DNA of 63,320 nt, the filler included, from Thraustochytrium aureum (taxonomy: Eukaryota): the NCBI GenBank assembly GCA_012862495.1. It is 6 parts of 5 records of this genome, joined end to end, with 100 filler letters (N's around TTAATTAATTAA, not from the genome) between each part and the next. Parts side by side here need not be neighbours in the genome. Positions count along the whole stretch, not along the records: positions 13,650 to 25,444 come from BLSG01000430.1; 5 more parts are not named here. The stretch is one strand, 5' to 3'. The notes beneath the pieces were generated by a model. That model was not told the DNA's origin, ran no database searches, and saw nothing but the letters and a program-made list of their open reading frames with translations. Shown in pieces: positions 2-51,242 of this stretch. Each line of letters opens with the position of its first letter. Within the stretch, counting starts at the first letter, position 1. The translations under genes were made by a program, and so were the position numbers.

Positions 2-695
2 CCCAGAAAGCGGAGCCCCAAACCTCGGGGCACAAGACAGGCGCGACGACTCGGGCGCAGTCGTCTCAAAAGAGACGTCGGCATCCAGGCTTTTCAAAAT
101 GCGCTGCCAAGACACACCATGAAGACAACCTCACTCGACGCCATCCGCGCCGCAGTGCTTGTACGCTGCCGCGTGTACGACGCTCTACGCGCACTACAGC
201 AACCGTCAATTCTTAACGCTCAAGATGGAAGCAAGGATGGCCGAGCAGAGAGCGATCGACACGATGCTGAACTGGGTCACGCACGGAAAGACCCTGCCGC
301 TGGGCATAGGAGACGGGAGCAAGACCACCGGGTTTAAGGGCACCTCGCCCGGAGGACCCACCAAAAAGATCAAACGTCACGCCGTCAAATCCGGCTACGA
401 GCTGGTGCTGGTCAACGAGGCCTACACCTCCAAGCGCTCGGCTTGCTGCCAGGGGTATGACATGAAGGCTATGCAGAGACAGGCTGCCCAACGGGGAAAC
501 CGAAGACATCTATGGACTGCGCATTTGCACAAAATGCGGCAAGACGTGGGACGGGATCTCAGCGCGGCCATCAACATCTTTGACGTCTTCTACAACCAAG
601 TGGTGTTGGGTGAACCCCGTCCGCCGCACCTGAATAAAATACGCGATACCGGGCTTCTGGGAAGGACATGGCATTCGCAACTCATTTTAGGTTGA
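2..695 (+). mobile_element. Fanzor1 (eukaryotic TnpB-like RNA-guided RuvC nuclease), C-terminal half; 5' truncated by window edge, about 3 frameshifts
   Basis: Joining frames gives ...KTTSLDAI...LYAHYSNRQFLTLKMEARMAEQRAIDTMLN...LGIGDGS..GFKGTSPGGPTKKI...LVLVNEAYTSKRSACC...(frame 1, 481-552) EDIYGLRICTKCGKTWD / RDLSAAINI...RPPHL. This shows the Fanzor1-type G-D-x/GP segment, the relocated (D/N)E-x-x-TS glutamate, the Zn ribbon and RuvC-III RDxxAAxNI. Confidence 0.85.
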
Positions 696-781
696 GCCTT
701 CCGCTCGCTTACAATGAGATAGTATTGGGCAATTCGTGTCGTCGTGCCTAAAAGGCCATCCCGGGTTACCCGAATCCACTA
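647..781 (+). ncRNA. Candidate Fanzor omegaRNA scaffold overlapping the ORF 3' end
   Basis: Hand-folded: 15-bp hairpin 681-718 with CUUCC loop; stem UGGGCA 726-731 / UGCCUA 745-750; closing helices CCGGG 649-653 / CCCGG 760-764 and AUGGC 668-672 / GCCAU 755-759. Position matches TnpB/Fanzor omegaRNAs. Confidence 0.6.
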
Positions 782-3060
782 CTAGACCTCCTCGTACACG
801 CGCTTGGCGTCGCCGACGAGCTCGTTCGTGACTGGCCGAAACACGAACGACGGCGACGACACTGCGTTCGAATTCGACCGAGCCGGCCTCTGCTGAGCCC
901 GCGGCGACTGCGGGGACCTCGGGGCCGCGTTCTCCTGAAACGGCGGGCTGCGAGGGCTCGGGGCCTTTCGCGGGGGAAGCGTCGGCGGGCGAAAGAAGGA
1001 GCGAAAGCTCTCCGCCATGCTGTGCTTGGTCGGGCGAGGTGTTATGACGGATTGCGTTGCACGCCCCGCTCGCGGGCGAGGCGTTATGTCTGATTGCTTG
1101 CGCGTTCAGAGCGCGGGGACGACCTTGCGAAACCTGAACAGGACTGTATCTGCTGCCTTGGAGTGCTTCGGCTTCGCTGGCCACCTTTTTAATCCCCTCG
1201 TGGAGGCCATCGCGAAGCCCGCGCTGCAGGCCCTGCTCGTAGCCTTCTTGGATGCCGCGCTCAATGCCGTGGTTCCTCCCCTGCTGCACGCCTTCCACGA
1301 ATCCGCGCTGTATTCCCTGTTGCTTGCCCTCCTCGATTCCTCGCTGGAGGCCCTCGTTGACCCCGTGCTGAAGGCCTTGTTGCAAACCCCGCTCGAGCCC
1401 CTCGCGAATGCCGCGCTCGAGGCCCTCCCTGCGCGCTTCGTCCATCGCGCGCTGCTGCAGCTCCCATGTGTCGGGCGTTGCGACCGGGGCAAACGGCATC
1501 GCCATCACCGGGCTCGGAGGAGGCCCAGACGGTGGGCCATTGCCCTTCCAGCCATGGTCGGGCCCATTCACTGGCAGCGCGGCGACGGCGTACTGGCCCA
1601 CGACCATTTCGCGCCGCCGCTTGGTCACGGTCCCAAGCCACACTGCGAACCACACCAAGGCCAGAACGCCGCCGCCGCCCGCGAGGGCCAGCACCGCGAC
1701 GTCCACGTTGGCGAATAGGCCTTGGCCACTTGCGCCATCCACCGAGCCGGCGACAGCAGTCGTGGTCGGCGATGCGGTGGCGTTTGCGCCAGTGGGCACT
1801 GCAGTGGTCGTGGCAGCGGTCGGGGCCGCTGTCGGGGCGGCGGCGACATCGAGTTCCGCCACCAGCAACGACCCTGGCTCAGTGAGGCCGTCGTGGAAGA
1901 GCACGAGCGCCTTGGAGCCTTGTTCAAGAAACCCGACCCCGACAGTCCCGTACAGGTTGACTTTCTCCGGCGCGTTTGGCATCCCAGTCACCTGCAAAGG
2001 CGCCGCCCAGCCGCTGGCACTGGTCAAGCCTGCGCTCCTTGAATACCACACAGCGTTTGATGGGTTGTCTGTTGATGCCCACGCTGCGACGCAGACGGCT
2101 GCGGTACAGACGACGCCAGGCAGTGCGAGGCCGCCTACTGGTGGCTGGTGCAGCACGGCGAAAGGGGCGAACGAAGCGCCGCCGTCAGAGGAGTGGGCAA
2201 CCTCCATGTAGCTCACGGAGCTCCCCGTGGAAAACTGTCCGCAAACACCACGCACTTCGCGTCCGTCTGGCAAGTGATGTCGGGACGACCCCGCCGCGCA
2301 TTGCCTTCAAGTGCGAGAGTTTGCGGAGACTGTTCGATCGCCGTTGGGGCGGTCCACGAGACCCCCAAGTCCGTGCTGCGCAGAGTGTAGACACGGTCGG
2401 CCGAGGTTCCTGTTGGCGAGCCCACGGCCATGATAGCGCAGGTCGCTCCGCTTGGCGCGCAGGCCACTTTCACAGCCTTGAAGCGGACAGAGTTCACAGA
2501 GACACTCGCAAGAGCCTCTGCCGCCGCCCAAGTCTGCCCGCCGTCTGCGGACCGCGTCAGGTAGAGGATGGCCTCGGTGTCAACAACCACAGTGACAGCC
2601 AAGCATGTGCTTCCAGCGCAAGCCAAGTTGGGTCGCTCCTTTGTCCCGGCCACCGGAAACGGCAGCGCCACTGGCGATGCCCAGCTGCTACCCTGCAAAA
2701 CCAAGGCGTGCAAAGCTAATTGGTCCAGCTGGCGCCACACCATTGTGCACGCAGCCCCAACAATCGAGCTGCGGGNNNNNNNNNNNNNNNNNNNNNNNNN
2801 NNNNNNNNNNNNNNNNNNNNNNNNNNNNNNNNNNNNNNNNNNNNNNNNNNNNNNNNNNNNNNNNNNNNNNNNNNNTCGTTGCCCTCAATTACAGCCACGC
2901 ACTGCCCGCCTGTTCGGCACCCGACTTGCGGCCTGCGCAAGTTGGTCGACGGCGGCGCGGTGATCCTCCCGGCCACTTGAAACGCGTACGCCGCGCCAAG
3001 TCCGTCGACGGCCGCAAGTGCCAGCACGACGGCGGCCCAACACGCCCTCTGCAGCCCCAT
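782..3060 (-). CDS. Signal-peptide, BNR/Asp-box (sialidase-fold-like) single-pass membrane protein with a cytoplasmic GxxxG repeat tail; frameshifted and gapped
   Basis: Signal MGLQRACWAAVVLALAAVDGLGA (ATG 3060); Asp-boxes RSADGGQTW, RSTDLGVSW, HSSDGGASF; TM VAVLALAGGGGVLALVWFAVWL; (GLERGIREG)n tract. The C-terminus is either ORF 782-1018 or read-through to 687. Confidence 0.65.
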
Positions 3061-9735: not shown

Positions 9736-10934
9736 ATGGAGAACGGGACGGTCGTGATCGTGGGCGCGGTGGCTGGCAGCGAGCTCGGCGTGGATTTGAA
9801 GCGGTGGAGGCTCGGCGACAGGTTTTTGGGGGTGCGTATGGTGCCGCCTGGACTCAGGCTCGTGCATTATGATGCTGGCGGCGCGGCGGAGACGCGCGGG
9901 ATGTTTCTGCGGGTCGCCGCTGGCGAGGTCTTGGCACTGCGGTGGGATGCGCAGGTCGAGGCCTTTGTCGCTGTGGAATCTGGCCTGCGCGAGGCGATCG
10001 AGGCCCAAGTGAGGCGGTTCGAGCTGGATGACAGGCTTGGTCCGTACGACGCGTCGGGCCTCGCACAGTGGGATGGGCTGGCTGGGCTCGTCTCCACGGA
10101 GGTTCTCGAGCGGTGCGGGCTAGCCTGCGGCGATGTGATTGCGCAGGACCGGGGGGAGGAAGGTGGTGTGCGGTTTGTGGCGCCGCGGTTTTCGACGCTT
10201 CCGGACGTGCCAGCCCTCGTGCGCAGAGCAAGGAGCGAGGGCCTTGCGCGGCTCGAAGGGAAAAAGTACCTGCTTGACGAGAGAGGGGCGAGGCTCTCCG
10301 CGGCGCAGATCAGCACCCTCAACAGGACCCTTCCGCGCTGGTGGCGCGGATGCTCCAGGAGGACTTTGGCGGCGATCACGCGGTCTTTCTGGGCGAGCTG
10401 CAGCTGGCGTTCGTGGCATTTATGTACCTTGCCTCCATTGAAGGGATGCAGTACTGGAAAGTCGCAACCTCGCTGCTATGTCGCAGCGAGTCTCTGCGCC
10501 AGACGCATCCCCAGCTCATCCGGGGCTTTGCGCACGTTTTTGCTGCTCAATTTGGCGTCCTGCCCCGCGACCTCTTCACAGATGAAATGCTCCAAGACAG
10601 CTTTTTCAGAGAGGCGCTCGCAGATCTGCTTGATTGTAGCGAGGAAAAGGGGACCGTGCCCGCAGGGGTTCGCGACGGGCTCGATGCGCTTCGCGATGCG
10701 ATCGAGCGTCGATGCGGAAGATCTGTCTTGCGGCAGCTATCGATCGCGCAGGTTGATGAAGCGTTTGAAGCGCTGGCCATCCAAAATGCCTGCGCTCGAT
10801 CCAGCGTATGCGGTGAAACTCGGAGTGACGCGGCTGCTGCTGTGGCGGCGGCGCCGAAGCCAGAGCGCCCCGGGCCCGGGCACCAAGCCCGCATGGCCTG
10901 GATGCTGCCTCCCGAAGGCTCGGATGCCCTGTAG
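9736..10934 (+). CDS. AAR2: AAR2 U5 snRNP assembly factor; frameshift near 10330; start uncertain
   Basis: GSELGVDL..FLGVRMVPPG..VHY, LRWD, DDRLGPY, LGELQLAFVAF..QYWK..LLCRS. Divergent from TAF11. Confidence 0.85.
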
Positions 10935-11055
10935 CTTGCAAGTTCTCGAAGAGGCGTTGCTCATGTAAGACAGATGTTCCACCAACTCGGCCGAAGCAAG
11001 AAAGTAAGCAAGTTAGAATGTGCGCAGCGTCTACCTCGACGAGCGCGAGGCGCGA

Positions 11056-12740
11056 TTAGATGTCTTCGGTTGTGACCTTGTCGAGGCGCTCGCTCTTCCG
11101 CCTCGATTCCGCGACGTTTTTCGCCACGGTGGCCTGCGCCCTGGCATAGTCCTTGTCGATCGTAAAGAACATGAGGCCGATCGTGAAGCCGCACAGAATC
11201 CAGCCAATGAGAAACCCGGCCTGGATCCCCGCCGCCCGTGCTGTCTTTTCAGGCTTCTCGTCGAAAAGCGTGAAAAACTTGCTGAGCACAAACACGAGCA
11301 ATCCCTTGCCAAGGTCGTCAAACAGGTTGAGGATACTGAAGGCAGAGCCGCGGACCTCGGGGACCGTGACGTTGACGAGGATCACCTTGGTGGTGTTGCC
11401 CGCAAAGCCGAGGCAAAAGCCGCCTGGGATCACCACGAGCGCCGTGACGAGGAGCGACGAGGTGTCGATCTCCACGTAGAGGGCCATGGGCAGCGCGCCG
11501 AGCGCGGTCATCCCGGCCAAGATGAGCGGGATGAGCCTCTTGCGCTTTTCGAACAGACGATCCGCCATGAAGCCGGCCACAATCGCTCCGACCGTGACGC
11601 CCGCGCCGAAGATGAGGAGAACGATGCCTGTGAGTGCGCGGTCGATGGACTTTTCCTCGGCCAGAAAGTCGCTAAAGTACGTGGCGAAGATGCCCCCTGC
11701 AACAGCGCCGCGGATAATCGAGCGCAAGCAAGCAAGCAAACAAGCAAGCAAGAGTGAAGCGAGCCAGCGAGCGTCAGCGATGCCGTCTGTGGGCCAAAGC
11801 GATCCAGGTGTGGAGCGGGCAAAGCAAGCCAGAACGTACATGGGAGGCTTCCGGGGATGCCCTGCAGAAAAACCAGGACCGCCGTCGGCGTCTTGAGCAG
11901 CTCCTTGAACTGCGACCAAGTAATCTTCTCGTCGTACGGAACAAAGTCCTCAAGCTCCTCCTCCAAGCCGATGAGTGCCTCCTCCTTTTGGCCCCTCGCC
12001 GGCTCGCTCACGGTGGCGAGGAGCAGCGCAACAAGAAAGTAGGCCGGCACAGAGACAATGACGAAGGACACGCGCCAGTTCGACCCGTCTTCGCCAGCTA
12101 CAATCCCGGAGAGGGTTTGGCCAATCCCGGTGCCCGCTCCGATGGCCATCCCCGCTGCGGCGACGGCCTTGCCGCGGTTGCGGATCGTAAACAGGTCGCC
12201 GAAGAGCGAAAACACCAGCGGGACGGCGCCGCCAATGGCGACCCCCGTCATAGCGCGCGTCGCCCAGAGGCCCCAGTACCCGGTGACCCACCAAGTGGCA
12301 AGGCAGGCGGTCTCGCCGATGACGGTCACGACGGCGAGCGTGTTGCGGCGGTTGACAGTGTCAGTGAGGTAGCCGACGACGACGCTCACGAGGCCGCCGA
12401 GCATGAAAAAAGCCAGCGTGATGTCCCCGCCTAGCTTTTGGTCGCGCATCGTGGCGTTCACCTTGGTCACGTTGGTCTTGAGCTTTTCGTCGTACACCAT
12501 GATTGGGTCGCCGTTCGCGTCGAACTCGAGAAACCCAAACTCGCGCGCCACTGGTGTCAGCACTGGGCTCAGCAGGTTTTGGTCCGCGTTGAGCACGAGC
12601 ATGAGCCCCACGATCAGCGCCGTCAAGTACCAGGATTTGCGCAGCTTCACGCAGCCCACCTTCATCCACTCGTCCACCGCAGCTTCGGGCGCGTCATCGA
12701 GCACATCCGTGCCCTCCGGCCCTTTCTGCGCCGTGGCCAT
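11056..12740 (-). CDS. MFS transporter (spinster-like), two exons (12740-11840 and 11696-11056)
   Basis: ADQNLLSPVL, motif A GYLTDTVNRR and GFMADRL, LFGDLF..RGKA, PEVRGSAF. Splicing restores GSLP-W-GIFATY. Confidence 0.9.
11697..11839 (-). other. Spliceosomal GT-AG intron (143 nt) in the MFS gene
   Basis: GTACGT...TTGCAG on the minus strand; contains a TTGC microsatellite; removal joins the two frames. Confidence 0.88.
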
Positions 12741-13593
12741 CCCCGAGCGCCGCGAGCTCAACCCCGACCTTGCCCGTCATCCTCGCAGCGCTTGCAGCTG
12801 CCCTCGAGAGCCTTTCGGCCGCGTCCGGCCGCCGTTACGACGAGTTCACGTGGCCGCGAGTCTCCGATCGCGTGAAGCCAACGACTCGAAACCGAAACTC
12901 GCTGCTGGAGCGAGGGAAGCTGACGCGCGACGCCGCAGCTCGCTTGACGCACCGTGCTTGCCAGCGCCGCGTCCTCGCGTGTTTGGCAACTGCTTGCCTG
13001 CAGACGCAAGTGACGAGAAGCGAAGGGTGTGGAGTAGACATCAATGAACTGCGCCTTACTTCTACAGGGAGCAAGTACTTCCTGATGGCGCTGCGGCGGT
13101 GCAAAATTCAGAGCTCGAACCACTCTTGTGCGTCCGACGACTTGACAAAACCCGCAAACCCTCACTTCCGTCCCGGGCTCCAGTCCGCGCGGCACTCCGT
13201 CTCAAGCCCCCCAGCGTTCACGTCACATGGTACCTGTCGTCACGTGGGCCGTTTATTGGCGAGGAGGCTACGCGTATGAGAAAAAGGTTCCGGTGCCGAG
13301 TGATTGGTGAGGTGTGGGCCGTGCGGGCTGGGCCCGTAGAGAATGGATGTGCTGATATTTTGGTCAGGGCGGTGTGCGAGGAGGGAGGGAGCGCGCTCTC
13401 GAGAGCGCGGCGGCGGCAGACGCCGATCGCAGTGGCGCGCGGCGTGCGGAAGGCCCGTGCGGGCCTCGCACGCGTTGGGTTTGGTTTGCTAGCGGGCGCG
13501 TTCGGGGAACGCTGCTCGGCGGCTCGGGGATGGGCGGCGATTTTGGTCCNNNNNNNNNNNNNNNNNNNNNNNNNNNNNNNNNNNNNNNNNNNN

Positions 13594-13605
13594 TTAATTA
13601 ATTAA
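13594..13605. other. Artificial scaffold linker TTAATTAATTAA flanked by Ns (also 25489-25500, 32371-32382, 49333-49344, 59922-59933)
   Basis: Identical six-frame-stop palindrome embedded in short N runs five times. Confidence 0.97.
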
Positions 13606-13746
13606 NNNNNNNNNNNNNNNNNNNNNNNNNNNNNNNNNNNNNNNNNNNNGTCCCGACGCGCTGAAGCAAATATGCGGTAAGCTCCAAGAAAATTGGGACA
13701 TAGTCCTTGGACCTTTCGATGATTGCCCCACAGTTGAAATGATAGA

Positions 13747-16700
13747 TCAATTCGACATCCAGCGCGCGTCTTCTGTTGCTTGCGCTGAGCGGAACAACAT
13801 ACCAACGACGTTGTGGCCGAGCCCCAGAACCCTTAATGACAAGCTCCCAAGGGTTATCTTCCGTATTTGGAGCGGGGGAGACGCTGGGAGAGGCATTGGG
13901 ATGACATCTCCAGTATCAGATCCAACGTCAGGTTCAGGAAAGATGCGGTTCACCTCCGCCACGGCAGCTTCCAACTTTTGATCGATCGCATCTTGAGCTG
14001 TGCGGGTAGCACAAACACTAGCAGCCCACCTTACGATTGTGCGAACAACGTGGATTGTCCTTTCTCTGACAAAAGCAAATTGCCTGTCCTGGTCGGCAGC
14101 CAAGTCAAACTCCAGAGCGAGAAGGTTGCTTGTCTTGAATCTGAGTCTTTGTTGCGCTGATTCGTCGCTTTCTTCTCTGACCCTCGCGTACATTTCGATT
14201 GCAGGCGTTCGTCGGCCCTCGTTGTTGAAGGCAGTCGAGACGGCGGCGAGGTTCCCGATTCGGTGCATCCACCCGGCAAGAGCCACCCTGGGATGGATGT
14301 GATCGACTTGAACGGCTTTGTCTTGGTGTGGGATGCAAAAGTGGGCCAAACCCCTTTGCGACCTGTACTCGGTCTCCCATCGAAACGCACCTTCATAAAC
14401 CCAAAGGACAAGCAAAATTCTCGTTCGAACTTTCCGAGTCCCATACCTGAGCCGGGCAATAGCCGCTGCAAGTCGCCGGACACTCTCAGCAGCAAAAAGT
14501 CTATTGCGGAGCTCTTGCATGCGGTCGTCAGCGTCGGCTTGTCGATTCTGCCGATTCTCGAATTCTTGGTGGAAAAGGGTGACAAAGTTGCTTTCGTCCA
14601 CCAACGCGTCTGAGATGTGGCATATGAGCAGAAACCGCACGAGTGTCACCTGTGTAGCGAACATTCTTCCAGTGGCTGCTACAGGATCCAAAATACGGAG
14701 AATGTCGTGCATCCAGCCCGCGCTAGGCAAGATGTGGAAAACTGAGCACAGCGAACGCAGCTCTTGCAGGTCACGCCTGAAGCTTTGTGCATTCTCAGGT
14801 TCGCTGGNNNNNNNNNNNNNNNNNNNNNNNNNNNNNNNNNNNNNNNNNNNNNNNNNNNNNNNNNNNNNNNNNNNNNNNNNNNNNNNNNNNNNNNNNNNNN
14901 NNNNNNNNNNNNNNNNNNNNNNNNNNNNNNNNNNNNNNNNNNNNNNNNNNNNNNNNNNNNNNNNNNNNNNNNNNNNNNNNNNNNNNNNNNNNNNNNNNNN
15001 NNNNNNNNNNNNNNNNACGGGGATTGCTATTGTGCGCGACGCGCTCGATGATATCCAAAAGGTAGACGTCTTCGAACTTGTGAAACCAAAAGCTTGAGCC
15101 TACCTCCTTCTTGAAGAATTCCAACGACTCTTGCCCCCCGGAGCTCAAAAAATATGGCATGCACTCCTCGGCACGGAGTCGCGATTGCTGTGGCACACCG
15201 GGTAGCACGCTCAATCGAGCAGCGTTGCCGCCCGCTCGCACGCTTTCCCAGAAACGTCTGTGCTCAAGATGCAACTCAACTAAGGCCTGTACAAGCGTGT
15301 CGGCCTCGTTTCTCTCAGCTCGGGTGGGTGACCTTGACCACAATTGGAACGCGCGAACGAACAGATCGAAGGGGGAGAAAAACGTTGGCATGTTGCAGTT
15401 GTGTCGCATGAAAAGACCCATTGCACCGACCTCCTCGGACGCCCACGCGACCGCGTACCCTATATTCCACAAGGCGGCCATGGCTGTCTGCAGATTCTCT
15501 CTCATTTGTAGCAGAACCATTGCAATGATCATAATGTCATTCAAGTTTGCTGCCTCGCCAGTTGGCAGCATCGCTCCCCGCCGTGTTGCGGAGCACACGT
15601 TGTCCAGCACATCCCAACCCTCCGGTGAAATGTTTGCGTCTTGAATTGCAGAAAGGCTACGCCACAGCTCCTCTGCGATCGCCTTGAAGTTGACGAATGT
15701 TTGTTGGTTGTGGTTGGTTGCGAGTGGCTGAACTGTTTCTCTTGCGGCCCTTGAAACTGTGTTGGTGACTAGCTGGAGGCCGTGGTTGTAGGTATCGAGC
15801 TCCTCGTCGCCTTCTCGTCGAAGGAGCGGCTGCTCCTGCTCCCCGTCGTGCCACAGCTCAGGTTCGTGCTCCTGAAGCTTGCTCAAGTCTGGTCCAAGAA
15901 CAGCCGATAAGAGCTGAACGCGCTGTGTGTACACGTCGTTTGGTTGGTATGCGACGCCTCCGTCCAAATCGTTGCCGAGATTCCCTAGTGCACTCACGAA
16001 GTTATGGCGGGCCTGGCCGATTCCTCTACGCCTCTCCATAGCTCTTCTGTATTGCCCTTCTAGGTGACAAATGGTTTCAAGCCTGTCGCTTGCGCTCTCC
16101 AACAATGTTTGAGCTCGCTCCTGGGGCATGTCACTTGTGATCTCCGCGACGCGTCCAAGAAACTCCACAATGCGCGCTGTGTAACCAGTAACGAGATGCA
16201 GTCGTTGTTCGTCCATCCGAAGTGCACTAAGTCTGTTGATGTCGTGGATTGCGTCCTCACGTGTGAGTGCGCAGAAGTCTCTCCACCTCTCGTAGGACCT
16301 CTGCAGCATGTCATCCGGTTCTTGCTGGGCAGTGAGTAACCACTCACGGATCATAGGGCTTTGCAGCCTGTTCTTGAGATCGTTTACACTCTCGACGACG
16401 ACGGAATCGACAAATGCGCACGCCAAGAGGCTCAGGTAGGCAGTTGTGATGCGACCCTGACCGTCGAGGACAGAGATTGGCCAATCGCTTTGCCTAGCTC
16501 TGGCAGCTCTTGTGATTCCTCTCTGCTGCCTTGGAGCAAAGAGATAGAGCAAGCCGTGTTGGAGTCGGTTTGCCTCCTGTGCGCGCTCTTCCGTAGGATC
16601 GAACCCCAAAATGCCAAGCTCCAGCAAGAGACCATGAGCAAAGTTCGCAGCGTGCTCTGGCGCCCAGGAGTATGCGCGCTGTATCCCGTGAATCCACAAG

Positions 16701-16792
16701 GGAGAGTTCCTGCCGATGTTGGAGTGGACTGCATTCGTCGTCCAGCTCAACAGATCTTTCAGCGTCGTTGATCGTACCTCTCCATTGGCCAT
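13747..16792 (-). CDS. GmrSD-family modification-dependent nuclease: DUF262 (ParB-like) with a large insertion plus C-terminal DUF1524 HNH; about 1000 aa across an N gap
   Basis: DUF262 motifs IHGIQRAYSW, VLDGQGRITT and LFMRHN..SPFDL; HNH VDHIHP..HRIGNLAAVSTAFNN. Both frames are open right up to the gap (..SEPENAQSFRRDLQELR..). Confidence 0.78.
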
Positions 16793-17886
16793 GATTGTGC
16801 GTGAAATGCCAAGCTGGGGCTTAGCAGTGTCGAGATGAGTTTGTGGTTGGACTTGCCGTTTGTGAGGTTGCTCGCGGTGGGTCGGCTCTTCTTCGTTGCT
16901 GGTCGAGTGCCTGTACGCGTGCTTGCCTTCGTTGCTTGCTTCGACTTGCTTGCTTCCTCTCGCTTCGGTCCCTCAATCTATTGGGGGATTGCTTATCCCA
17001 GGGAGACTGCTCGCGATGTCAACAAATGCATCTGCGCAACTTCGGAGAGAATCCAACCGCTCAGTCAAAGTCCCAACTCCGCGCGCCGATGCGAATGGAT
17101 TTGGCATCACAACTTCGGTGCGTTGGATTCCGTTTCCAGCGCGGCAAATAGACTGCACCTTCGCGACGCGGCAGCTGCAGNNNNNNNNNNNNNNNNNNNN
17201 NNNNNNNNNNNNNNNNNNNNNNNNNNNNNNNNNNNNNNNNNNNNNNNNNNNNNNNNNNNNNNNNNNNNNNNNNNNNNNNNNNNNNNNNNNNNNNNNNNNN
17301 NNNNNNNTTTGCTTGGCCAGAGCACTGGCACTGTCCAGATGGTCGGCGCGGGCCAATGTCGGCGCGTCGGTTGCAGCGAATCCCCGACTCGGCGCGGCAC
17401 GCGCCCGAGGAAGCCAAGCAACCGAACTCCGAAGTGTCGCCCGCCGCGGGAAGCCTTGGCCGAACGTGAATCACTGCGGCCAATGAATCAGTCCCGAAGC
17501 ACAAGTGTGGTCACTGCTCATGCGACTCAGAGAAAGAGAGTACCGGTAAGTAACCCCAACGGGCAGGGAGGGGTACAGATTAGGTACTGTCGCTTTTGAG
17601 CCACTCCAGATGTCGGTTGCCTCGGTAAATCCTGGAGACATCTGGTGCGTTGAGCGCATTCGCTGTTGCTCGTCGATTCTCTGTGAGGTAGGTAGGTGAG
17701 TGTCAAAAAAGCGTCTCGAAACGGCTTTGACAATCGCGTCTCGAAACGGCTGGAAGCTCGCCGCGGAGTTTAGACCGGCGGGAAACAACTTGGTGCTATC
17801 GCTACGAAAGCGAGTCGCCCATTCCGCGGCAACGTTTGCAGCGCGGATCAAACCAAGCTTGCGCAGAGATCGAGCCTATACGCGCG

Positions 17887-20800
17887 ATGCAACTTTCCCA
17901 TGCAGTTCTGAAACAGGCCGAAGACTTGCTGGACCATCCTGAGGCGATTGAGAGGCAAGCAGCAGCTTGCTCATCGAGCGGGCGACGTGACAGCACCTTC
18001 GCAAGTATGTCGGCCGGGTTGAGTATTAGCGCGTCACTTCTAGGGCATTATTTTTCCGTCAAATGCGACAAGTACCTGTGGCGAGCTGCTCGGGGCCATC
18101 GCCGCAACGAGTACCAGGAAATTCCAGCGAGGCAGATTGCGCAAACGAAACGCGGCGATGACTTTGAGACCGCCAAGATATCCATGCTTGATGGAGGGGA
18201 TCTCCGCCATATCCCAGGCGACTCGAACGACCTGACCGAGGTTCTCGACGGCGCGGAAGGACCGTTTGTGATGTCGCAAGCAAAGATTGAATTATATCCC
18301 GCAAGCGCCTGGCAACGAAGCGAGCCACCCAAGTGGCTCAGGCGGCTGGAGGAATGCGGGGCGCGAATGAGTATTTGCAAGCCAGACTTTATATTCGTGG
18401 ACAAAGTTGAAGGGGGGGGCTTGGAGATTTTGGTTGTTGACGCCAAGTCAAGCTCTCGCGCTAAGCTTAGTCACCTTGTTCAGGTAGCCATTTACATGGA
18501 GCTGCTTGAAGCGTTCATGGCGATGGTGGGCCTGAACGATCAGCGTTCTGAGGAATTCAAGATTACGGTCTCGATGTGGGGTGGCGTATGGATTCCCAAG
18601 GCAGGAGGCCACCAAGTCAAGCTGAATGGACGCCAATGGTCTATCGACGACGGGCCCGACCTGTTTGACCTAACGCACTTGCGTGAACAACTTCGCATTT
18701 TCCTTGAAGACGAGTTGCCTGCAATCTTAGGGAAAGAGAGTCAGGAGCTGTTAGATTGGAGTATAGAGTCACATTGCGCCACATGCCTGTACAGGGACGA
18801 CTGCTATACAAGGGCGGTATCGGACTCGACCGTGTCCCGACTCGCAGCTGTCCCACGGGTCAAGCCTTCGGACCGGGAATGGCTGCTCAGGCAACTTGAC
18901 GACACTGGCGGAGCAATAGTCGCAGGTGACATTCCTGTCGACAAGCTCCTTAGAGTTGCTGCGCAGGTTGAGGGCGCACCCGTCGACCGTGCCCGATTGC
19001 TCCGTATTCTATCTGCAGAGGGACTCGAGGCGTCAAACGGAGCTGTCCTTAAGGTTTCGGGTCATGATGGTGAACAGGCCTTGGGAATAGCTATCAAGCC
19101 GTCAAGGAGCAGCATAGACTTCCCGCGAATGGAAGATATCGCTGTGGTTCTCAGCTTAGTTGGCGACCCGACTACGCTACCACCACGACTGGCCATGTGG
19201 AACGTGGAGCAGGTGGAATGTAATGTCACCGGGCCAACTTGTGCCGCAACCGCGACGAGCTTCATTGTCTCAAACGACTGCAAGAACTTTGGTGAATGCG
19301 CTCGTGCGCTCGTATGCTGCTTGCATGAGTTGATGTGCGTTCTTGATGAGAAGGTTCCGCGGCGCAAAGTTGCTTTCATGGTCTACAGCGCAAATGAACA
19401 AGCGCTCCTTACAAGTGTGCTGCTTGGTATTGCGCTGGCAGACGAGGACTCTGAGGCAGATGTAGGCCTTGCCAAGGCGGCGATGGCTGTATTAGCCACC
19501 TTGGGAGGCGGTTCTGAGTGCATGGACATGAAGGCGTGCGTCAAAAAGCTCTTTCACGACGACGCAGTCAGACCCAAAACGACAGACTTTCGTCAAGCTG
19601 GTCGAGAAGAATATGAAAGGATTATCCCCGCCGCGTATCGTCGCGCTTTTGAGGCCTCCAGCAAAAGTCACGTATTTGGCAACGGGAAGGTTATGGTAAA
19701 ACCTATGCGATTGGCCTTGTACAAATGGTCGCTTCTCGTATACCTCGAGCGCGAGGTTTCAACGGAGGAGTTTGTAACTGCGTGCCAGCAGTCCAGCGGG
19801 TGCGAATTTGAGGCCCTTGCCCGAGCAAAGGAGAAGAACGATGGTCGTGAACGCAAAGCCAAACTAGAAAACTACTTCCGGCCCCGCTTAGCTGTGGTGG
19901 AGCTCTTCGTTCAGCGCCACTTTGTATTGCGAGCCCCTGGCCCATGCAAGCTCAACGATTTAGCGAGGCTTGCGGACTGTTGCCCCAACACCTCGCTGGA
20001 CGATGATAGCCTTTTCCAGTGTTGGGTCAAACTGGGCCAAGATTCGATTGCTGCGCGACTTCGAGAACGATCGCTGTGTTTGCTCAAAGTGGTCGCTTTC
20101 CTTCGAAATACACTGACGAGTGGGCAAGCGGAGAACATGCCCTTTGAGGCTCGCCCATACCTTGTCTTCGACGCAGCTGAATTTTTTGTGAGCACCACAA
20201 CTTCGCTGCAAAGTCCTCACCTTACGCGTCTTCTCTTTATCGCACAGCACGAGGTGCTCTCTGGAATTAATGCACATCGCACCGAGCGGGCTCATCTTCC
20301 CCTGCAAGACTTGCTACTTATGGGCAAGGGAAAAGCCGCAGCACTCGAAAGAACAAATGCCACGCAAAAGGCTGACAAGGCGATGGCAAACTGCTCTCTG
20401 CTTGAGTTTAGGCTGCTTGACGGGAGTGAAAACGCCCAACTCGAGGTCGAGAACAACGAGTACCTGTTCTCGTACATCCTTGTGCTCGATGATGCCGTTG
20501 GGCGGCACGATGCGCGGACATTTCCAGACTACACGCGAATGGATGACCTGAACCCGGTCTTCTCTGGCCGAGTTGGCGGGCCGGCCCTGGCCAAGGTGAC
20601 CGAAGTTAACGGAGGCAAGGTGACTCTCAGTGTGCTGTCAAGCGATTGCGCTACCTTCCTCAACGCTGGCGTGAGAGCATTGCTGTATCGGCGTTACGTC
20701 AATTTGAGGCTGTTCCAGCGTGAGGTCGACGCGCTTAAACGCCACTCTCGCAACCAACCGACGCTATTTGCTGAGCTCCTTGCCAACCCGGCAGTGGCAA

Positions 20801-23018
20801 GCGTCTGGAAGCCGCTGCGCATGCCCCCTGACGACCTGCGAGGGGCAAATATTCAAGCCAAAATCGAGCGTGCCAAGGCGCGCTGGAATTTGAGCGTCTC
20901 TCAACGCGAAGCTCTGACGATGTGCACAAGCCGTCATCTTGTCAACGTTTGGGGCCCGCCTGGATCTGGCAAGACGTACTTCCTTGGGTGTCTTGTATGT
21001 CTCCTCCTGGAGTGCTTCAAGGATTCGCAATTTCGTGTACTCGTTTGTAGTTCGACAAACTCGGCTGTCGCGACANNNNNNNNNNNNNNNNNNNNNNNNN
21101 NNNNNNNNNNNNNNNNNNNNNNNNNNNNNNNNNNNNNNNNNNNNNNNNNNNNNNNNNNNNNNNNNNNNNNNNNNNNNNNNNNNNNNNNNNNNNNNNNNNN
21201 NNNNNNNNNNNNNNNNNNNNNNAAACAACCGAAGGAGTGGAAGCAGGCGTGTACCGATTCGGATACGCCAAAGTGGACGGCTGTGTGAAGGCCGAGAACT
21301 TTTCCTTCCCCAAAGGCCAACTTTGCTCAGTCATCGGAAGCACCCCTTGGCAGCTTGCAAAGCAAAGGAATCTCACCGCGACGGCAGAAACTATGCATGG
21401 ACCTTTCGACGTCGTCATAATCGATGAGGCTTCTCAAATGCGGATTGGTGCCGCTTCAATTCCGCTTCGGTTTTTGAAGCTCGACGGGCGACTCATCCTA
21501 GCGGGCGACCACCTTCAACTGCCCCCCATTGTCAAGGCCGAATATCCCGCTCCGCCACCTGGACATCTCAATCTCACTGGCTCTATCCTCGACTGCCTCC
21601 TTCGCGAACAGTCTGCAGCTCCTCTGTCCCCATTTACGAAGGGGCATGTAGGACCTGGTGTGAGTCCAGAAGCAAGGAAGTCGCGAGTGGCCAAGCTGTG
21701 CAACAACTTCCGAATGAACAAAGCTCTTGCTGCCTTCACGCAGCTGACTTACGGGACCGACTATGAGGCCATGGGGATCAACGCGTGCCGGCGTCTTCCA
21801 GTAGCAAGTCTGGACGACCCCTCGATGTGCGGCACCGATCTTCTCAACCCGCACAAATCGTTCGTTGCCTTTCAAATGCCGGAGGTCGACGATGGGACGA
21901 CAGTAGAGGAGATGGCCAGCAACGAGGCGGTTGAGGTGTGCCGCATCGTCGAGGATCTTTTCTGCAGGTGGTGCGGCCAAGACCCGGTAACCAATGAGCT
22001 CTTCATCGTGTCACCCCACCATGTCCAGCGAATCGCAATCCGTGCCGCTCTCAGGGCAAGCAAGGTCAAAAAAGTTCGGGATGCAGAGCCTCTTCTGTTC
22101 GTTGACACCGCAGAAAAGGCTCAAGGCAAGACCGCAGACTGTGTTATCCTGTGCTACGGCATCACAACGCGGTCAAGGCTAGAGGAGGACGCCGCTTTCT
22201 TGTTTACTCTTCCAAGGCTCAACGTGGGGCTTTCTCGTGCACGTTGCAAGACGATTCTGATCTATGGCAAGCCCATTGTGAAGGCCAAGCCCCACATCTT
22301 TTCCAATCCAGGAGTGCTGCAAGGATTTCGCCTGTTCAAGCACGCACTCCATTTTGCGGGTTTGAAAGACCCAACGTTTTCCCAGGAGGAAGAAGGCACC
22401 GCGAACGCAAGCCCATTTGAAGCGTCGCTGGAACTCTTACGAAACATGTCGCTCGATTCCACAGCCGGAGGGGCTGGGAAGGTGGATTCTGGAAACGCCC
22501 TTGCGACCAAAACTGAGTCGCCGCCGGTTTCAGGTCAACTGGTGCTTGGAGAGAGCAAAATCTTAAACTCGCAGACAACGCGAGACGGTACGGAGACTCT
22601 GGCAGAATCGGTAGCACACAGAAGTTCTCGAGACAGCGAAGCTACAACGATCCCACAAGTAGAGACGCACTTCAAGAACGAAGGGTCCCATTCTCAGGAC
22701 ACACTGCACGGCACCGGAGACCCGCAATTGGAGTTCGAGAAGAAAAGTGAGACAGTGCAAAAGGCCGCAAGCGACGACTCCACGCTCGCACAAGACAATA
22801 AATCGGCGTGTATCGTTGGCATTCCCAACAGCGATATTGAGCGAACAACTCATCGCCGTGCGCCAGAGATCCCAAGACAGCAAGTGGAATACAGGTCGCA
22901 TGACGTGATCGACCTCACTGAGGAAGATGAATCCACGATTGACCTCAGTGTCACGGAAGCGTCAACATCTGCAAGCTTCAAACGACCTCTTTCTTCAGGC
23001 GAGCACCACACAGCTTAA
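17887..23018 (+). CDS. PD-(D/E)xK Cas4/RecB-like 4Fe-4S nuclease fused to a Dna2/Upf1-type SF1B helicase (AAA_11/AAA_12); N gap; start 17887 or 18007
   Basis: ISASLLGHYFSVKCDKY (Cys1), KPD..VVDAK..HLVQVAIY, CATCLYRDDC; WGPPGSGKT, STNSAV, IIDEASQ, LAGDHLQLPP, NFRM, TAEKAQG, RLNVGLSRAR. Confidence 0.88.
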
Positions 23019-24568
23019 AAACGCACCTTCTGAAAGCAGCCAAGTTCGCGGCGGGCCTTCACGGTGGGCCTGCACTACGGCCAGTCACGCTTCAACTTGG
23101 CTTTCTCAAGGCCTTGACCCGTGCAATCGCGATGTGAGTATGTGGAAATCAAGCCAGGTCGACACGCGATCGTCCCATGAGTCGCGTGTAATGGCCTGCT
23201 TGTCGCGTGGCTCATAGACGTGGGTTTGGCCGCATGGCAAGCGCTTCGTTTTCACAGCAAGCGGCAGGCCCCAGCTGATAAACATGGGCTCTGCACACTG
23301 ACTCACGGACAGACCGCGACATCGACTCGNNNNNNNNNNNNNNNNNNNNNNNNNNNNNNNNNNNNNNNNNNNNNNNNNNNNNNNNNNNNNNNNNNNNNNN
23401 NNNNNNNNNNNNNNNNNNNNNNNNNNNNNNNNNNNNNNNNNNNNNNNNNNNNNNNNNNNNNNNNNNNNNNNNNNNNNNNNNNNNNNNNNNNNNNNNNNNN
23501 NNNNNNNNNNNNNNNNNNNNNNNNNNNNNNNNNNNNNNNNNNNNNNNNNNNNNNNNNNNNNNNNNNNNNNNNNNNNNNNNNNNNNNNNNNNNNNNNNNNN
23601 NNNNNNNNNNNNNNNNNNNNNNNNNNNNNNNNNNNNNNNNNNNNNNNNNNNNNNNNNCTTTTTCTGCAAGGGTACTCTACTAGTACATGTGTCGGCGCCA
23701 CCATTTGCGGGGCTGAGGCAAACAATAAGTGCGATGACGTCTTAGGACTGGACTGCTTCCAAGAACGCACATCATGCGGACCCGGCCGGCACAAATGTGC
23801 AGTGCTGCAACTCTTGGCGTCGCTTTCTATGGCCGCCTTTCAACTTCCGACAGAATGCTTGCGCGCTGCGTGGATTGGTTCACTCTACCTACACACTGGA
23901 GCGCGATGCAAAAGTTGAGTGCGCGACGACTTCACATGCAGCAGGCCACAGCGGAGCCACGGCGTTGCAGGCTCAGAGGTACTTGCGGCCATGCTACTCG
24001 AGATGCTATCGCGGTTGGGGCGCGCCGACGACGATGGATCCCATTCGAGGACATCGGCAGCAGGTCCAAAAAGCCCAGCAAGGATGGGTCAACCGACACT
24101 CCGGTTGACTACCCCCAACGGGCTTGGCGCAGAAAGGCATTGTCCGTACGCCACAGACAGGAGGAATCAGTCGCGGTCCTCCTCGCAGCCAAGTGCAGTC
24201 CGGTAGACGGCACCGAGATAGATCCGTCGCCACAGGGCGACGAGGAGTTGGATCATCCGCTGAGCGCGCAGCCCTGGAATCAGGCTTCCAACCATTTGCT
24301 TCGCCTTCGAGCCGACCTTCGCGCGATGCATCCACGGCACGATTTGAAGTTGCTTTTCCGACACGTGCGGTAGTCTCGGAGCAGCCCGCGAGCACTCGGA
24401 GAGCGGGCGAGATGCCCGTCCGTTACTCGACTAAACACTCGGCCTCCTGCGCTGCGCGGGCGCCCTGCTTGGTCTCCAGGGCGCTCTCGCTCGTACTGCC
24501 GTGCAGCTTGTGTGCGCCGCAGCACGGCGAAAGGGGCCTGTGGTTCTGTTCGGTTCCCAGCCTGCTCC

Positions 24569-25444
24569 TCAGCTGTCGCTACATTTCGCCAGATACTCGC
24601 AGGTTCCAACATGCTCGAGGGTGTGGGGGTGGGGATTGGAGCGGCAGATCGGAGAGAAAGGAAGCCGGACCGGGTTGTGACCGCCTGGGACGCTACCATC
24701 CGAGCTGGCCACAAAGAGCGTAAGGCCCCGCACGTCACCGTTTGCGCTTGATCCGCCAATGGAATATGAATGCATCGCAACGGCGATGTTGGTTTTTGAA
24801 ACTATCGCGACAGCGCTGCCTGTCTCTCTGAGCTTAATGCGAGTTGCAGCCGTCCAGGCTTTGTCCTCCATTTTGTATACCTGAACTTGAGATCCCTTGT
24901 TGAAGAGAAACGCAGCCAGCCCTTTCCCAATTGCAAGACGGCCTGTCGTTGGAAGATGCCCATTATCCCTTTTAGCATTTGGCAGAGTAGCGACGGGATC
25001 CGCGGAGAGTTTCACCTCGACCTTCTCAATCGATGAAGCGACCCACGTGAACTGGAGATCTAGGCTCAGGCATTCGTTCACCTTCTTCTTCTTGCCACGA
25101 CTGACCACCACAACGCCTGTACCACTTGTCGCCGTTCCCTCTCCTTCTTGTTGTTGGAGCTTGACGAAGCGGAAGGATCTTCCATTGTCCAAGTCGACCA
25201 TTTCAGGGTCAGTCTGGGCGCTACAATGCGCGGCGCGCCCGCTGTAGTACACATAACTCCATGAAAGGGTTTTTCCAGATTTGCCTGGAACAAATGCCAG
25301 CGCGACCATGCCGCCATCCTCATGGTAAAATGTGTTGACATTCGTGCCGTCGTAGATACAATTGGAAGCCACAATGGCTGCTGAGACATCGTCGCTTCGG
25401 ACGCCGCCACAAAGCTGGAGTTGATCGAGCGTCTGCGTCAGGTA
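24569..25444 (-). CDS. Hypothetical beta-rich protein fragment, possibly 5' truncated by the scaffold end
   Basis: 267-aa open frame of alternating beta-strand-like segments; no recognisable motif. Confidence 0.35.
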   Translation of the reverse strand, partial: YLTQTLDQLQLCGGVRSDDVSAAIVASNCIYDGTNVNTFYHEDGGMVALAFVPGKSGKTLSWSYVYYSGRAAHCSAQTDPEMVDLDNGRSFRFVKLQQQEGEGTATSGTGVVVVSRGKKKKVNECLSLDLQFTWVASSIEKVEVKLSADPVATLPNAKRDNGHLPTTGRLAIGKGLAAFLFNKGSQVQVYKMEDKAWTAATRIKLRETGSAVAIVSKTNIAVAMHSYSIGGSSANGDVRGLTLFVASSDGSVPGGHNPVRLPFSPICRSNPHPHTLEHVGTCEYLAKCSDS

Positions 25445-49487: not shown

Positions 49488-50818
49488 TCACGCTCTGGCG
49501 GTCGCACTCCAAGCCTGCTCGGAGGCGCCGTGCGCGAGAGAGTACGCAACTGCCTCAACCTGGGGCTGGCCCGGGCGCAGGCGCCACTCGAGCGAGGGCG
49601 CGTACATGGCCAGCTCGTCCTGCGTATAGGGCGGATAGAGCGGTAGTCCATACTCGCGGAGCGACTTCATCTCGCGGTGCACGGCGCGCACAACGGTGCC
49701 CTGGTCCCTGCCCGACTCCACTTCGCGGTCTGCACAGCACAGCGGCTTGACGTTCCTCTCGCTAAAGCTCTTGATCTTGTCTCTCCAGTTAGCCCAGTGC
49801 AGCAACCCGTACATTGGCGGTGTTTGGCCCGACTTTAGCGGAATCACGCCTTGGCACTCCAAGCGTTCGAGGATGTCTTGCAAAGGCTCTTTTTCAAGGG
49901 TGAGGCGCCATCCCAGGTAGAGCCGCAACATGTCGAAGGACGCCTTGTCCGTGACAGTTTCTTGCAGGATGTGCTCGTGAAACACGAGGATGTGGCCCGG
50001 CGGGACGGTCACCTTTTGGCTTCTCTGGCCGAGCATCTCTTGCTCTGCTGGGTCGCAAACTGGCTCAAACCCGCTGTGCACAGATGGGCCAACCTCTTTG
50101 TGCGAGCCAGGCACGCAAGAGAATACCTGCCCTTCCAGGTCGAGGTTGCACCAGCCGCCATTGATCTTGTCGAGCTTTTTTGCCAAAGGCACTGCGTCGC
50201 GATGCCACGACTCGGGCGAGGGCGAAATCCCTTTGCGGCGAAACATGAGCCTGTCGATGAGCTGCTCGAGCCGCCAGGGCTCCCCTTCGGCGGACGGCGA
50301 AAGCAAGGAGCAGATCTTGCGAAATAGCGGCAGCAGGTGGGCCATTGCGTGCTCGCGGAGCTTCCGAACGGATGGGCAGTGGAACGACGCCGGGTTGCCC
50401 AGGGCCGCGAAACCGCCGAGAACAAAGTCCGTGGCGCCCGGCTTAAACTCTGGAAAGCCTTGGATATCTCTCATGATCTCTGCACGAAACGCTTCCAGCC
50501 GGGGTGGAGTTAGCCACGCCACCGGCACGCACACAAACCCATTCGTCTCAAGGTCAACGACCGCCTGTTCCACGTCAAAGCCTGCGTCCGCTGAAAGCAT
50601 CAACAAGCCCGCGGCGCCGCTATGCGAGCTCTGGCCAGCGACTTCCGCGGGCACTCTTCGCGGCGCACCTTCGTCTCCAACCTGGCTCGGCCGACCTGCT
50701 GGCTTGCACCTCTTTGGCGGCGAGGGCGGCGCATCGTCCGCGTTCACCTCCCGCTTGACGCCTCTGGCCTCTTCGCCAGCCGGGCAGCGCACTCCGCAAC
50801 GCGTGTTCGCCTCCGCCA

Positions 50819-50819
<1 letters not shown>
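49488..50819 (-). CDS. 2-oxoglutarate/Fe(II) dioxygenase (PhyH-like double-stranded beta-helix fold)
   Basis: LETNGFVCVP, LGGFAALGNPASFH, ESWHRD (HxD), GGWCNLD..FSCVPGSH, VPPGHILVF, RLYLGW. Confidence 0.78.
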
Positions 50820-50880
<61 letters not shown>

Positions 50881-51242
50881 NNNNNNNNNNNNNNNNNNNN
50901 NNNNNNNNNNNNNNNNNNNNNNNNNNNNNNNNNNNNNNNNNNNNNNNNNNNNNNNNNNNNNNNNNNNNNNNNNNNNNNNNNNNNNNNNNNNNNNNNNNNN
51001 NNNNNNNNNNNNNNNNNNNNNNNNNNNNNNNNNNNNNNNNNNNNNNNNNNNNNNNNNNNNNNNNNNNNNNNNNNNNNNNNNNNNNNNNNNNNNNNNNNNN
51101 NNNNNNNNNNNNNNNNNNNNNNNNNNNNNNNNNNNNNNNNNNNNNNNNNNNNNNNNNNNNNNNNNNNNNNNNNNNNNNNNNNNNNNNNNNNNNNNNNNNN
51201 NNNNNNNNNNNNNNNNNNNNNNNNNNNNNNNNNNNNNNNNNN

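Follow-up and report, generated by a model that had tools for sequence, protein, structure and literature searches.

A Cas4-like nuclease-helicase gene head to head with a divergent GmrSD-like gene in the assembly of the marine protist Thraustochytrium aureum

To our knowledge, DNA immunity of the restriction type is essentially prokaryotic. In Dna2, a nuclease is joined to a helicase without a DEDD-fold insert, and single-stranded DNA (ssDNA) threads through the Fe-S nuclease as the superfamily 1B (SF1B) motor travels 5′ to 3′. Fusions of another kind, UvrD-Cas4, adjoin type III restriction-modification (R-M) or Dcm genes, according to the accessible part of the source (PMC5704561). GmrSD-type enzymes, such as BrxU and Eco94GmrSD, carry N-terminal QR and DGQxR motifs and a C-terminal D-H-N-N HNH motif with DHIxP in a single chain (PMC8565348, PMC4619093). 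As far as the consulted portions of these papers go, the DGQQR motif is nearly 100% conserved (PMC4619093), the Q101A substitution in BrxU abolishes restriction and DNA cleavage and reduces hydrolysis of nucleoside triphosphates (NTPs), and the BrxU nuclease residues are D474 and H475 (PMC8565348). The same portions note eukaryotes with GmrSD homologs in 3 among 613 genomes, naming Coccomyxa subellipsoidea and Thalassiosira oceanica (PMC4619093), and the part of a DUF1524 compilation consulted gives 263 sequences for that group in a last column taken, from other rows, to stand for eukaryotes (PMC5714182). Literature searches, which covered papers outside subscription, listed no paper that, by its title or the opening of its abstract, concerns a functional eukaryotic GmrSD. 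The present analysis concerns two genes in the assembly of the thraustochytrid Thraustochytrium aureum, here called G and H, which lie on scaffold B (BLSG01000430.1), a scaffold that probably belongs to this host and is one of six joined by spacers in the window analyzed (63,320 nt in full); all positions are those of the window, in which scaffold B occupies 13650-25444.

The explanation favored here, with moderate confidence, is that G and H are two old, domesticated, defense-derived nuclear genes in a variable region of low codon bias, H encoding an intact and probably nuclear nuclease-helicase and G a GmrSD derivative with an altered switch. The genes are divergent, head to head, with G running from 16792 to 13747 on the minus strand and H from ∼17884 to 23018 on the plus strand. 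Their ATG codons, at 16792 and 17887, are separated by 1.09 kb, in agreement with the original prediction of two long divergent genes ∼1.1 kb apart. Judged from its sequence, H is a full-length member of an uncharacterized prokaryotic family that combines a Cas4-like Fe-S nuclease, a DEDD fold, and an SF1B helicase and is also present in chytrid fungi. Its parts are as follows.

17483-17545 (+): predicted first exon of H, 21 codons with a basic end (prediction only)
17546-17841 (+): predicted phase-0 GT-AG intron, 296 nt (prediction only), with the same donor as the host PurF intron
17842-21075 (+): N part of H, comprising the nuclease, a degenerate DEDD/RNase H fold, a beta-barrel, and the helicase Q motif and Walker A
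18058-18804 (+): Cas4-like PD-(D/E)xK nuclease with four Fe-S cysteines
from ∼19130 (+): degenerate DEDD/RNase H fold
20953-20976 (+): helicase Q motif and Walker A
21076-21222 (no strand): run of 147 N inside H, with different frames on its two sides
21225-22390 (+): SF1B helicase motifs II-VI (AAA_11/AAA_12), all intact
22391-23018 (+): low-complexity tail of ∼200 aa, missing from the prokaryotic and chytrid relatives
22905-22931 (+): VIDLT followed by an acidic run, resembling a SUMO-interacting motif (SIM)

Pfam assigns AAA_11 and AAA_12 to H. Word-limited searches, which are unable to show absence elsewhere in thraustochytrids, returned as homologs two Chytriomyces proteins and one other protein; a chytrid homolog bears the automatic name “Tripartite DNA replication factor.” A genome scan with the alignment of the H homologs yielded at least 594 pattern matches, at least 390 of them confirmed, and the best 80 loci, a set biased to the bacterial seed P0004, span many bacterial phyla as well as methanogenic archaea. 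Against a profile built from 62 full-length prokaryotic proteins, H aligns in collinear order, its N part scoring 183 bits and its C part 216 bits; the controls (TM0106-like, IGHMBP2, and Dna2-like) match this profile mainly in the helicase. H and the chytrid protein both retain the complete E-PD-DxK-QxxxY set, all four Fe-S cysteines, and every helicase motif (Q and I-VI). The predicted product of H is an active nuclease-helicase driven by ATP. The nuclease-helicase domain assignment originally made for H is upheld. In an AlphaFold model of the N part (predicted local distance difference test score [pLDDT] 74.2, predicted template modeling score 0.76), residues 15-295 match Cas4 (Z 11.8, root mean square deviation [rmsd] 3.8, 200 residues aligned) and residues 390-733 match DEDD exonucleases (Z 11.7, rmsd 3.1, 171 aligned). 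The first DEDD strand retains one acidic residue in H, compared with two polar or acidic residues in most prokaryotic members, so that the DEDD domain of H is probably inactive. Identity of H to any prokaryotic protein is at most 29 to 31%. Membership of H in the TM0106 family was considered and rejected, as TIGR03491, with a curated cutoff of 97.45 bits, gives 15.8 bits for H; two bacterial relatives score 54.7 and 57.4 bits. By title and opening of the abstract, no paper listed in the literature searches deals with the family of H, and none was returned for TM0106 as a nuclease plus helicase.

Prokaryotic proteins automatically named “bifunctional RecB family nuclease/DEAD-DEAH box helicase” share with H the whole architecture and all catalytic residues; H differs from them in its SIM-bearing tail and predicted intron, the lack of an adjacent methyltransferase gene, and an identity of <31%. 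The UvrD-Cas4 fusions, as portrayed in the accessible text, also join a Cas4-like nuclease to an SF1 helicase in a methylase-containing defense context, but their helicase is of the UvrD type (3′ to 5′), whereas that of H is of the Upf1/Dna2 type (PMC5704561). The domain order differs as well: the nuclease follows the helicase in a UvrD-Cas4 example that neighbors one of the H relatives (L021) and precedes it in H.

After motif VI, the H protein continues for 267 residues; in the 34 prokaryotic loci with a motif-pattern match the median is 72 residues and the longest such stretch 87, and P0004 has 99. The VIDLT and following acidic residues in this tail form what we take to be a SUMO-interacting consensus; the pattern appears in 30 of 20,000 shuffles of the tail and in 1 of 81 prokaryotic members. 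The sole GTAAGT on the plus strand of scaffold B comes after an ATG-led frame of 21 codons, and splicing from it to an acceptor of the same phase would lead into the H frame. This GT-AG intron candidate, a prediction that shares its donor sequence with the host PurF intron, casts doubt on the earlier statement that the genes have no evident introns. An exact 16-bp direct repeat, 25 bp apart, lies within the predicted intron (window 17711-17751). Trees were built from 72, 39, and 27 to 28 rows, with near-duplicates and outgroups removed from the later ones. H joins the chytrid homolog on a long branch with SH-aLRT support of 96 to 97, and likewise under a mixture model; when only one of the two is included, it branches off the stem of one prokaryotic subclade. 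Because the branches are long and the outgroups attach at the same point, this position may be the family root, and neither a donor nor a direction of transfer is claimed. H likely works in the nucleus.

Gene G encodes a very divergent GmrSD-like DUF262-HNH protein, with the following parts.

15017-16792 (−): N part of G, 592 aa, a divergent DUF262/GmrS domain with a long helical region between motifs
16664-16681 (−): QRxYxW
16451-16465 (−): DGQGR
15398-15412 (−): candidate FxxxN, without statistical support
14808-15016 (no strand): run of 209 N inside G, with different frames on its two sides
13747-14805 (−): C part of G, 352 aa, with a DUF1524-type HNH motif (weak scores)
14290-14304 (−): DHxxP (weak score)
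14224-14256 (−): GNL...N (weak score)

Bacterial and phage GmrSD profiles recover the QR, DGQxR, and HNH motifs of G in the correct order, each above all 2,000 shuffles. The QR motif scores 7.5 bits (0 of 2,000 shuffles as high; hhalign probability 75.9) and the DUF1524 motif (DHIHP...GNL...N) 5.1 bits (again 0 of 2,000), the latter being weak, with an hhalign probability of 1.7. Pfam GmrSD_N gives 18.8 bits (E 0.0019), below its gathering score of 33.2, and the Pfam scan shows no GmrSD_C match; G also matches SspE (E 3e-4), and its ESM Atlas language-model features fall into GmrSD_N clusters (0.92). The whole-profile GmrSD scores are 14.6 and 9.9 bits, the latter barely over the best shuffle (9.8). 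The FxxxN candidate at residue 461 was picked by eye and is unsupported by HMM or hhalign, and MAFFT alignments, which misplaced the later motifs of G, were left out of all residue claims. The single-sequence structure model of G, considered for a ParB/Srx fold, has a pLDDT of only 36.8. At E≤0.001, a search of 1.84 billion protein representatives found no relative of the N part, and the parts of G have no match among plasmids or PDB sequences.

Where bacterial open reading frames (ORFs) have DGQQR (31 of 34, the motif being missing in the other 3 and DGQGR occurring in none), G reads DGQGR. The DGQGR pattern had no matches in viral sequences; in metagenomes it occurred in at least 121 stretches, with no GmrSD gene among the 103 motif-bearing frames listed, and the 32 frames scoring >5 bits among the matches listed were short (66 to 207 aa). 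The counterparts of BrxU D474 and H475 are kept in G. The motif of G has Gly at the position of a Gln that is essential in BrxU. G is therefore GmrSD-derived but fails a defining feature of that family, and its NTP switch is likely broken or rewired. The GmrSD-type domain assignment originally made for G is upheld, with the QR and HNH motifs present, DGQQR replaced by DGQGR, and the Pfam score below the cutoff; the proposed modification-sensing restriction is weakened by the same Gln-to-Gly change.

G shares with BrxU and Eco94GmrSD the single-chain layout of QR, DGQxR, and D-H-N-N HNH motifs, to the extent that the consulted text describes it, and differs in its DGQGR and its eukaryotic setting (PMC8565348, PMC4619093); for G, any modification dependence is putative. 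It is also longer, ∼1,000 aa compared with 550 to 700 aa, and its spacing from DGQxR to the candidate FxxxN is 351 residues compared with 79 to 148 in GmrSD enzymes. The Coccomyxa and Thalassiosira homologs, likened to G by description only, are GmrSD-family genes in unicellular eukaryotes for which the accessible part of the report mentions no helicase partner, unlike G beside H (PMC4619093). With these homologs in print and homologs of H in chytrids, the novelty of the pair is reduced.

A viral DUF262 protein used as a candidate seed (L146:1102-3690, minus strand, on a 640-kb viral contig) contains numerous AT-hook-like GRPKGS repeats and lacks an evident HNH motif. It found one relative only, at 82% on a 676-kb contig, and no match to G.

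In prokaryotes, relatives of H commonly lie next to DNA methyltransferase genes. Of 61 full-length loci, 50 could be evaluated, having ≥1.5 kb of sequence on either side, and in 31 of these 50, from many phyla, a methyltransferase gene lies within 600 bp of the H relative; the count rests on 15 seeds from the same loci, named via Pfam, NCBIfam, or PADLOC, and is doubtful for L034. The methyltransferases are of several classes (Dam-like, N6/N4, and DUF1156-like), the abutting loci include L011, L012, L015, L019, L027, L044, L046, L057, L062, L072, and L076, and the helicase gene is near 10000-14200 in most of them. In the subclade nearest H, none of the 9 evaluable loci has a methyltransferase gene, and the neighbors are of repair type or mixed (HhH-GPD with UvdE, UvrD, RecQ, and HEPN-MNT). 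Other neighbors of H relatives include BREX, type III R-M, McrBC, McrB-N, AbiE, Tn7, WYL, and GmrSD genes, as found in overlapping scans of 123, 23, 40, and 30 that covered part of the 267 neighbors. Of 81 loci, 5 have a GmrSD-like gene in the flanks retrieved (strong in 4, weak in 1), and in none of the 81 is it directly adjacent to the H relative. Both families reside in defense islands, in accord with the predicted prokaryotic ancestry, and the G-H pair is no conserved unit in the sampled loci, which gives no support to the two-gene system originally proposed. On scaffold B itself, no methyltransferase gene was seen among the ORFs scanned, with 582 N between and after the genes, and the scaffold ends, out of view. 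The operon of a methyltransferase and a Cas4-like nuclease-SF1B helicase is a candidate R-M system, of which no description was found in the literature searched.

Some of these loci have further peculiarities. The methanomicrobial relatives L049, L050, and L054 have an HhH-GPD glycosylase gene downstream, accompanied in L049 by UvdE, a repair-type context. An aGPT-Pplase3/ADDT DNA-modification gene (L057:14669-15607, minus strand) stands beside an H relative and a methylase. In L018:7547-13780 (plus strand), the H relative is fused behind inositol-monophosphatase and ADP-ribosylglycohydrolase domains and lies next to McrBC. The PADLOC model PDLC02895 (DpdJ), at positions ∼40-500, scores the H-family helicase at up to 265 bits, which suggests fusions of this helicase with DpdJ in some genomes.

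The remaining features of the scaffold are as follows.

13650-25444 (no strand): scaffold B, GC content 0.554, low codon bias, host-like dinucleotide signature
16793-17482 (no strand): divergent intergenic region that may hold a shared promoter; contains a run of 127 N
24569-25444 (−): third ORF, open at the scaffold end, with the same low GC content at third codon positions (GC3) and a weak beta-propeller-like match

The GC content of scaffold B (0.554) compares with 0.598 to 0.651 on the other five scaffolds, and the GC3 of its six coding stretches (0.55 to 0.62) with 0.66 to 0.86 in 13 coding stretches elsewhere, as the original prediction had it by eye. The GC content at fourfold-degenerate sites (GC4), 0.51 to 0.56, corresponds to near-neutral codon use. 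The k-mer check that had been suggested, performed with dinucleotides, gave delta* values of 34 to 46 between scaffold B and scaffolds A, C, D, and F and of 71 with E, compared with 32 to 64 among the others; the signature of scaffold B is host-like, 4 of the 5 comparisons being within the host range. Its repeats are short and chance-like, and the intergenic spaces measure 1.1 and 1.5 kb. The third ORF has a weak match to designed beta-propellers (E 9e-5) and none in Pfam or PHROGs. Both genes are split by N runs (209 N in G and 147 N in H) with different frames on the two sides, so that the continuity of each gene is not directly readable. A control run in the PurF gene, which is on another scaffold, carries a GT-AG intron, and has its best named match (76%) in Hondaea fermentalgiana, is ∼33 nt longer than predicted by 7 of 8 homologs; with this control mis-sized, the N runs seem to have been given estimated lengths. 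What is missing would roughly fit one gene in each case, G of ∼1,000 aa and H of ∼1,700 aa; the run in H implies ∼81 residues where its family has 43 to 74. The PurF match and intron mark the host of the window as a thraustochytrid. The four sequenced gene parts comprise >2,600 codons without a stop.

The original prediction had allowed that H might simply be the host Dna2 ortholog. Dna2 (PDB 5EAN, 5EAX) likewise places an Fe-S PD-(D/E)xK nuclease ahead of an SF1B helicase, with a likely similar working principle, and it is the best PDB match both to the H helicase profile and in a Foldseek search (E 6e-5, TM 0.15, 11% identity); the automatic name of the chytrid homolog points the same way. 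However, the profile match to Dna2 is limited to the helicase, a direct phmmer search with the N part of H found no Dna2, and H contains a DEDD-fold insert of ∼350 aa, has a patchy distribution, and fits the prokaryotic family end to end. H resembles Dna2 in plan and is not its ortholog, a relationship we regard as extremely improbable. That scaffold B is a bacterial contaminant is suggested by the prokaryote-type gene families, the lower GC, and the absence of a physical link to host genes. It is made very improbable by the identity of at most 31% to the prokaryotes found and the grouping with chytrid proteins, together with the SIM tail, the splice-donor candidate, the long intergenic spaces, and the host-like dinucleotides. 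The scaffold might instead be part of a large DNA virus, endogenous or episomal, or of another mobile element, with the genes as its cargo. Lower GC and codon bias fit such an origin, as do giant-virus proteins that share the nuclease and the RNase H-like fold at 10 to 11% identity, and the accessible part of a recent preprint reports gene exchange between thraustochytrids and viruses, as well as persistent mirusviruses and skiaviruses in these hosts, the latter with a core DAM methylase (bioRxiv 10.64898/2026.07.28.741200). Yet H has no match in phages or IMG/VR, and G has no relative among 548 viral DGQQR stretches, in collections where mirusviruses are possibly poorly represented. PHROGs yields generic helicase and Cas4 matches plus one weak unknown family on scaffold B, and its 11.8 kb hold no viral hallmark genes or terminal repeats. 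The long intergenic gaps, the intron candidate, and the SIM tail add to this, so that the viral-element origin considered in the original prediction is clearly unlikely.

Decay of one or both genes to pseudogenes, with real frameshifts across the N runs, would explain the differing frames, the near-neutral GC4, and the extreme divergence of G with its DGQGR; given the stop-free codons, the retention of all catalytic residues in H, and the mis-sized control run, it is rated as quite improbable. A doubtful but serious contender is a coregulated antiviral module with a shared divergent promoter, in which G would nick foreign, perhaps modified, viral DNA and H would degrade it from the nick. The head-to-head layout, the shared low GC3, and the HNH residues kept in G are consistent with such a module, as are the defense-island residence of both families, the methyltransferase genes beside H relatives (31 of 50 loci) with McrBC, McrB-N, BREX, AbiE, and GmrSD nearby, and the persistent viruses and DAM methylase of the preprint as far as consulted. 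Against it stand the absence of the adjacent pair from all 81 prokaryotic loci, the change of the G NTPase motif at a residue essential in BrxU (per the consulted part of PMC8565348), the branching of H with a methyltransferase-free subclade (0 of 9), and the lack of a second eukaryotic instance, for which no proper search was possible. Its boldest form, a nuclear restriction-like system built from two bacterial parts, a rewired GmrSD sensor-nickase and a SUMO-recruited nuclease-helicase under one divergent promoter that restrains mirusvirus or skiavirus DNA, seems rather unlikely. Several observations weigh against domesticated genes acquired on separate occasions. No clear branch site is present in the predicted H intron; H and the chytrid protein are both on long branches, which meet at the point where the outgroups attach; the frames across both N runs are unreadable, leaving intactness inside them unproven; and scaffold B shows no host gene beyond the weak beta-propeller ORF. 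Moreover, chance alone is an unlikely reason for two neighboring defense-derived genes. Because GmrSD-like genes are ∼10-fold enriched near the prokaryotic H relatives (4 strong in 1.12 Mb versus 0.34 expected, p 4e-4, against a background of only 5 genomes), cotransfer of G and H from one island is possible.

If G and H are domesticated genes, as favored here, they were probably acquired separately, and they would lie side by side because lineage-specific conflict genes cluster, not because they must work as partners. H could be recruited to SUMO-marked DNA in the nucleus by its SIM tail and, in the manner of Dna2, feed ssDNA through its Fe-S nuclease as the SF1B motor translocates 5′ to 3′, thereby destroying foreign or aberrant DNA, with the degenerate DEDD fold acting as a DNA-binding spacer. 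G may bind or nick DNA without the nucleotide-hydrolysis cycle of the BrxU type, or it may be inactive.

Elsewhere in the window, an ORF with three Yae1_N-like repeats occupies 690-2273 (minus strand), and a GREB1-like gene is found on a different scaffold at 50620-58881 (minus strand), with cpSF2-GREB1 scores of 68.7 and 37.5 bits and a TAGT glycosyltransferase score of 27.2 bits (cutoff 27.5). The TAGT domain is predicted to glycosylate DNA bases. If the GREB1-like gene product does so, the host could bear marks of the kind read by GmrSD enzymes.

A joint antiviral module, if true, would be important and would bear on how protists limit their persistent large DNA viruses. H alone is a tractable and apparently intact enzyme, from a family for which no functional study was found, in a cultivable group of protists. 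G would reveal what becomes of a GmrSD scaffold after its NTP switch has been altered, and the operon of a methyltransferase with the nuclease-helicase, which recurs across many bacterial phyla, offers a candidate R-M system that can be tested directly.

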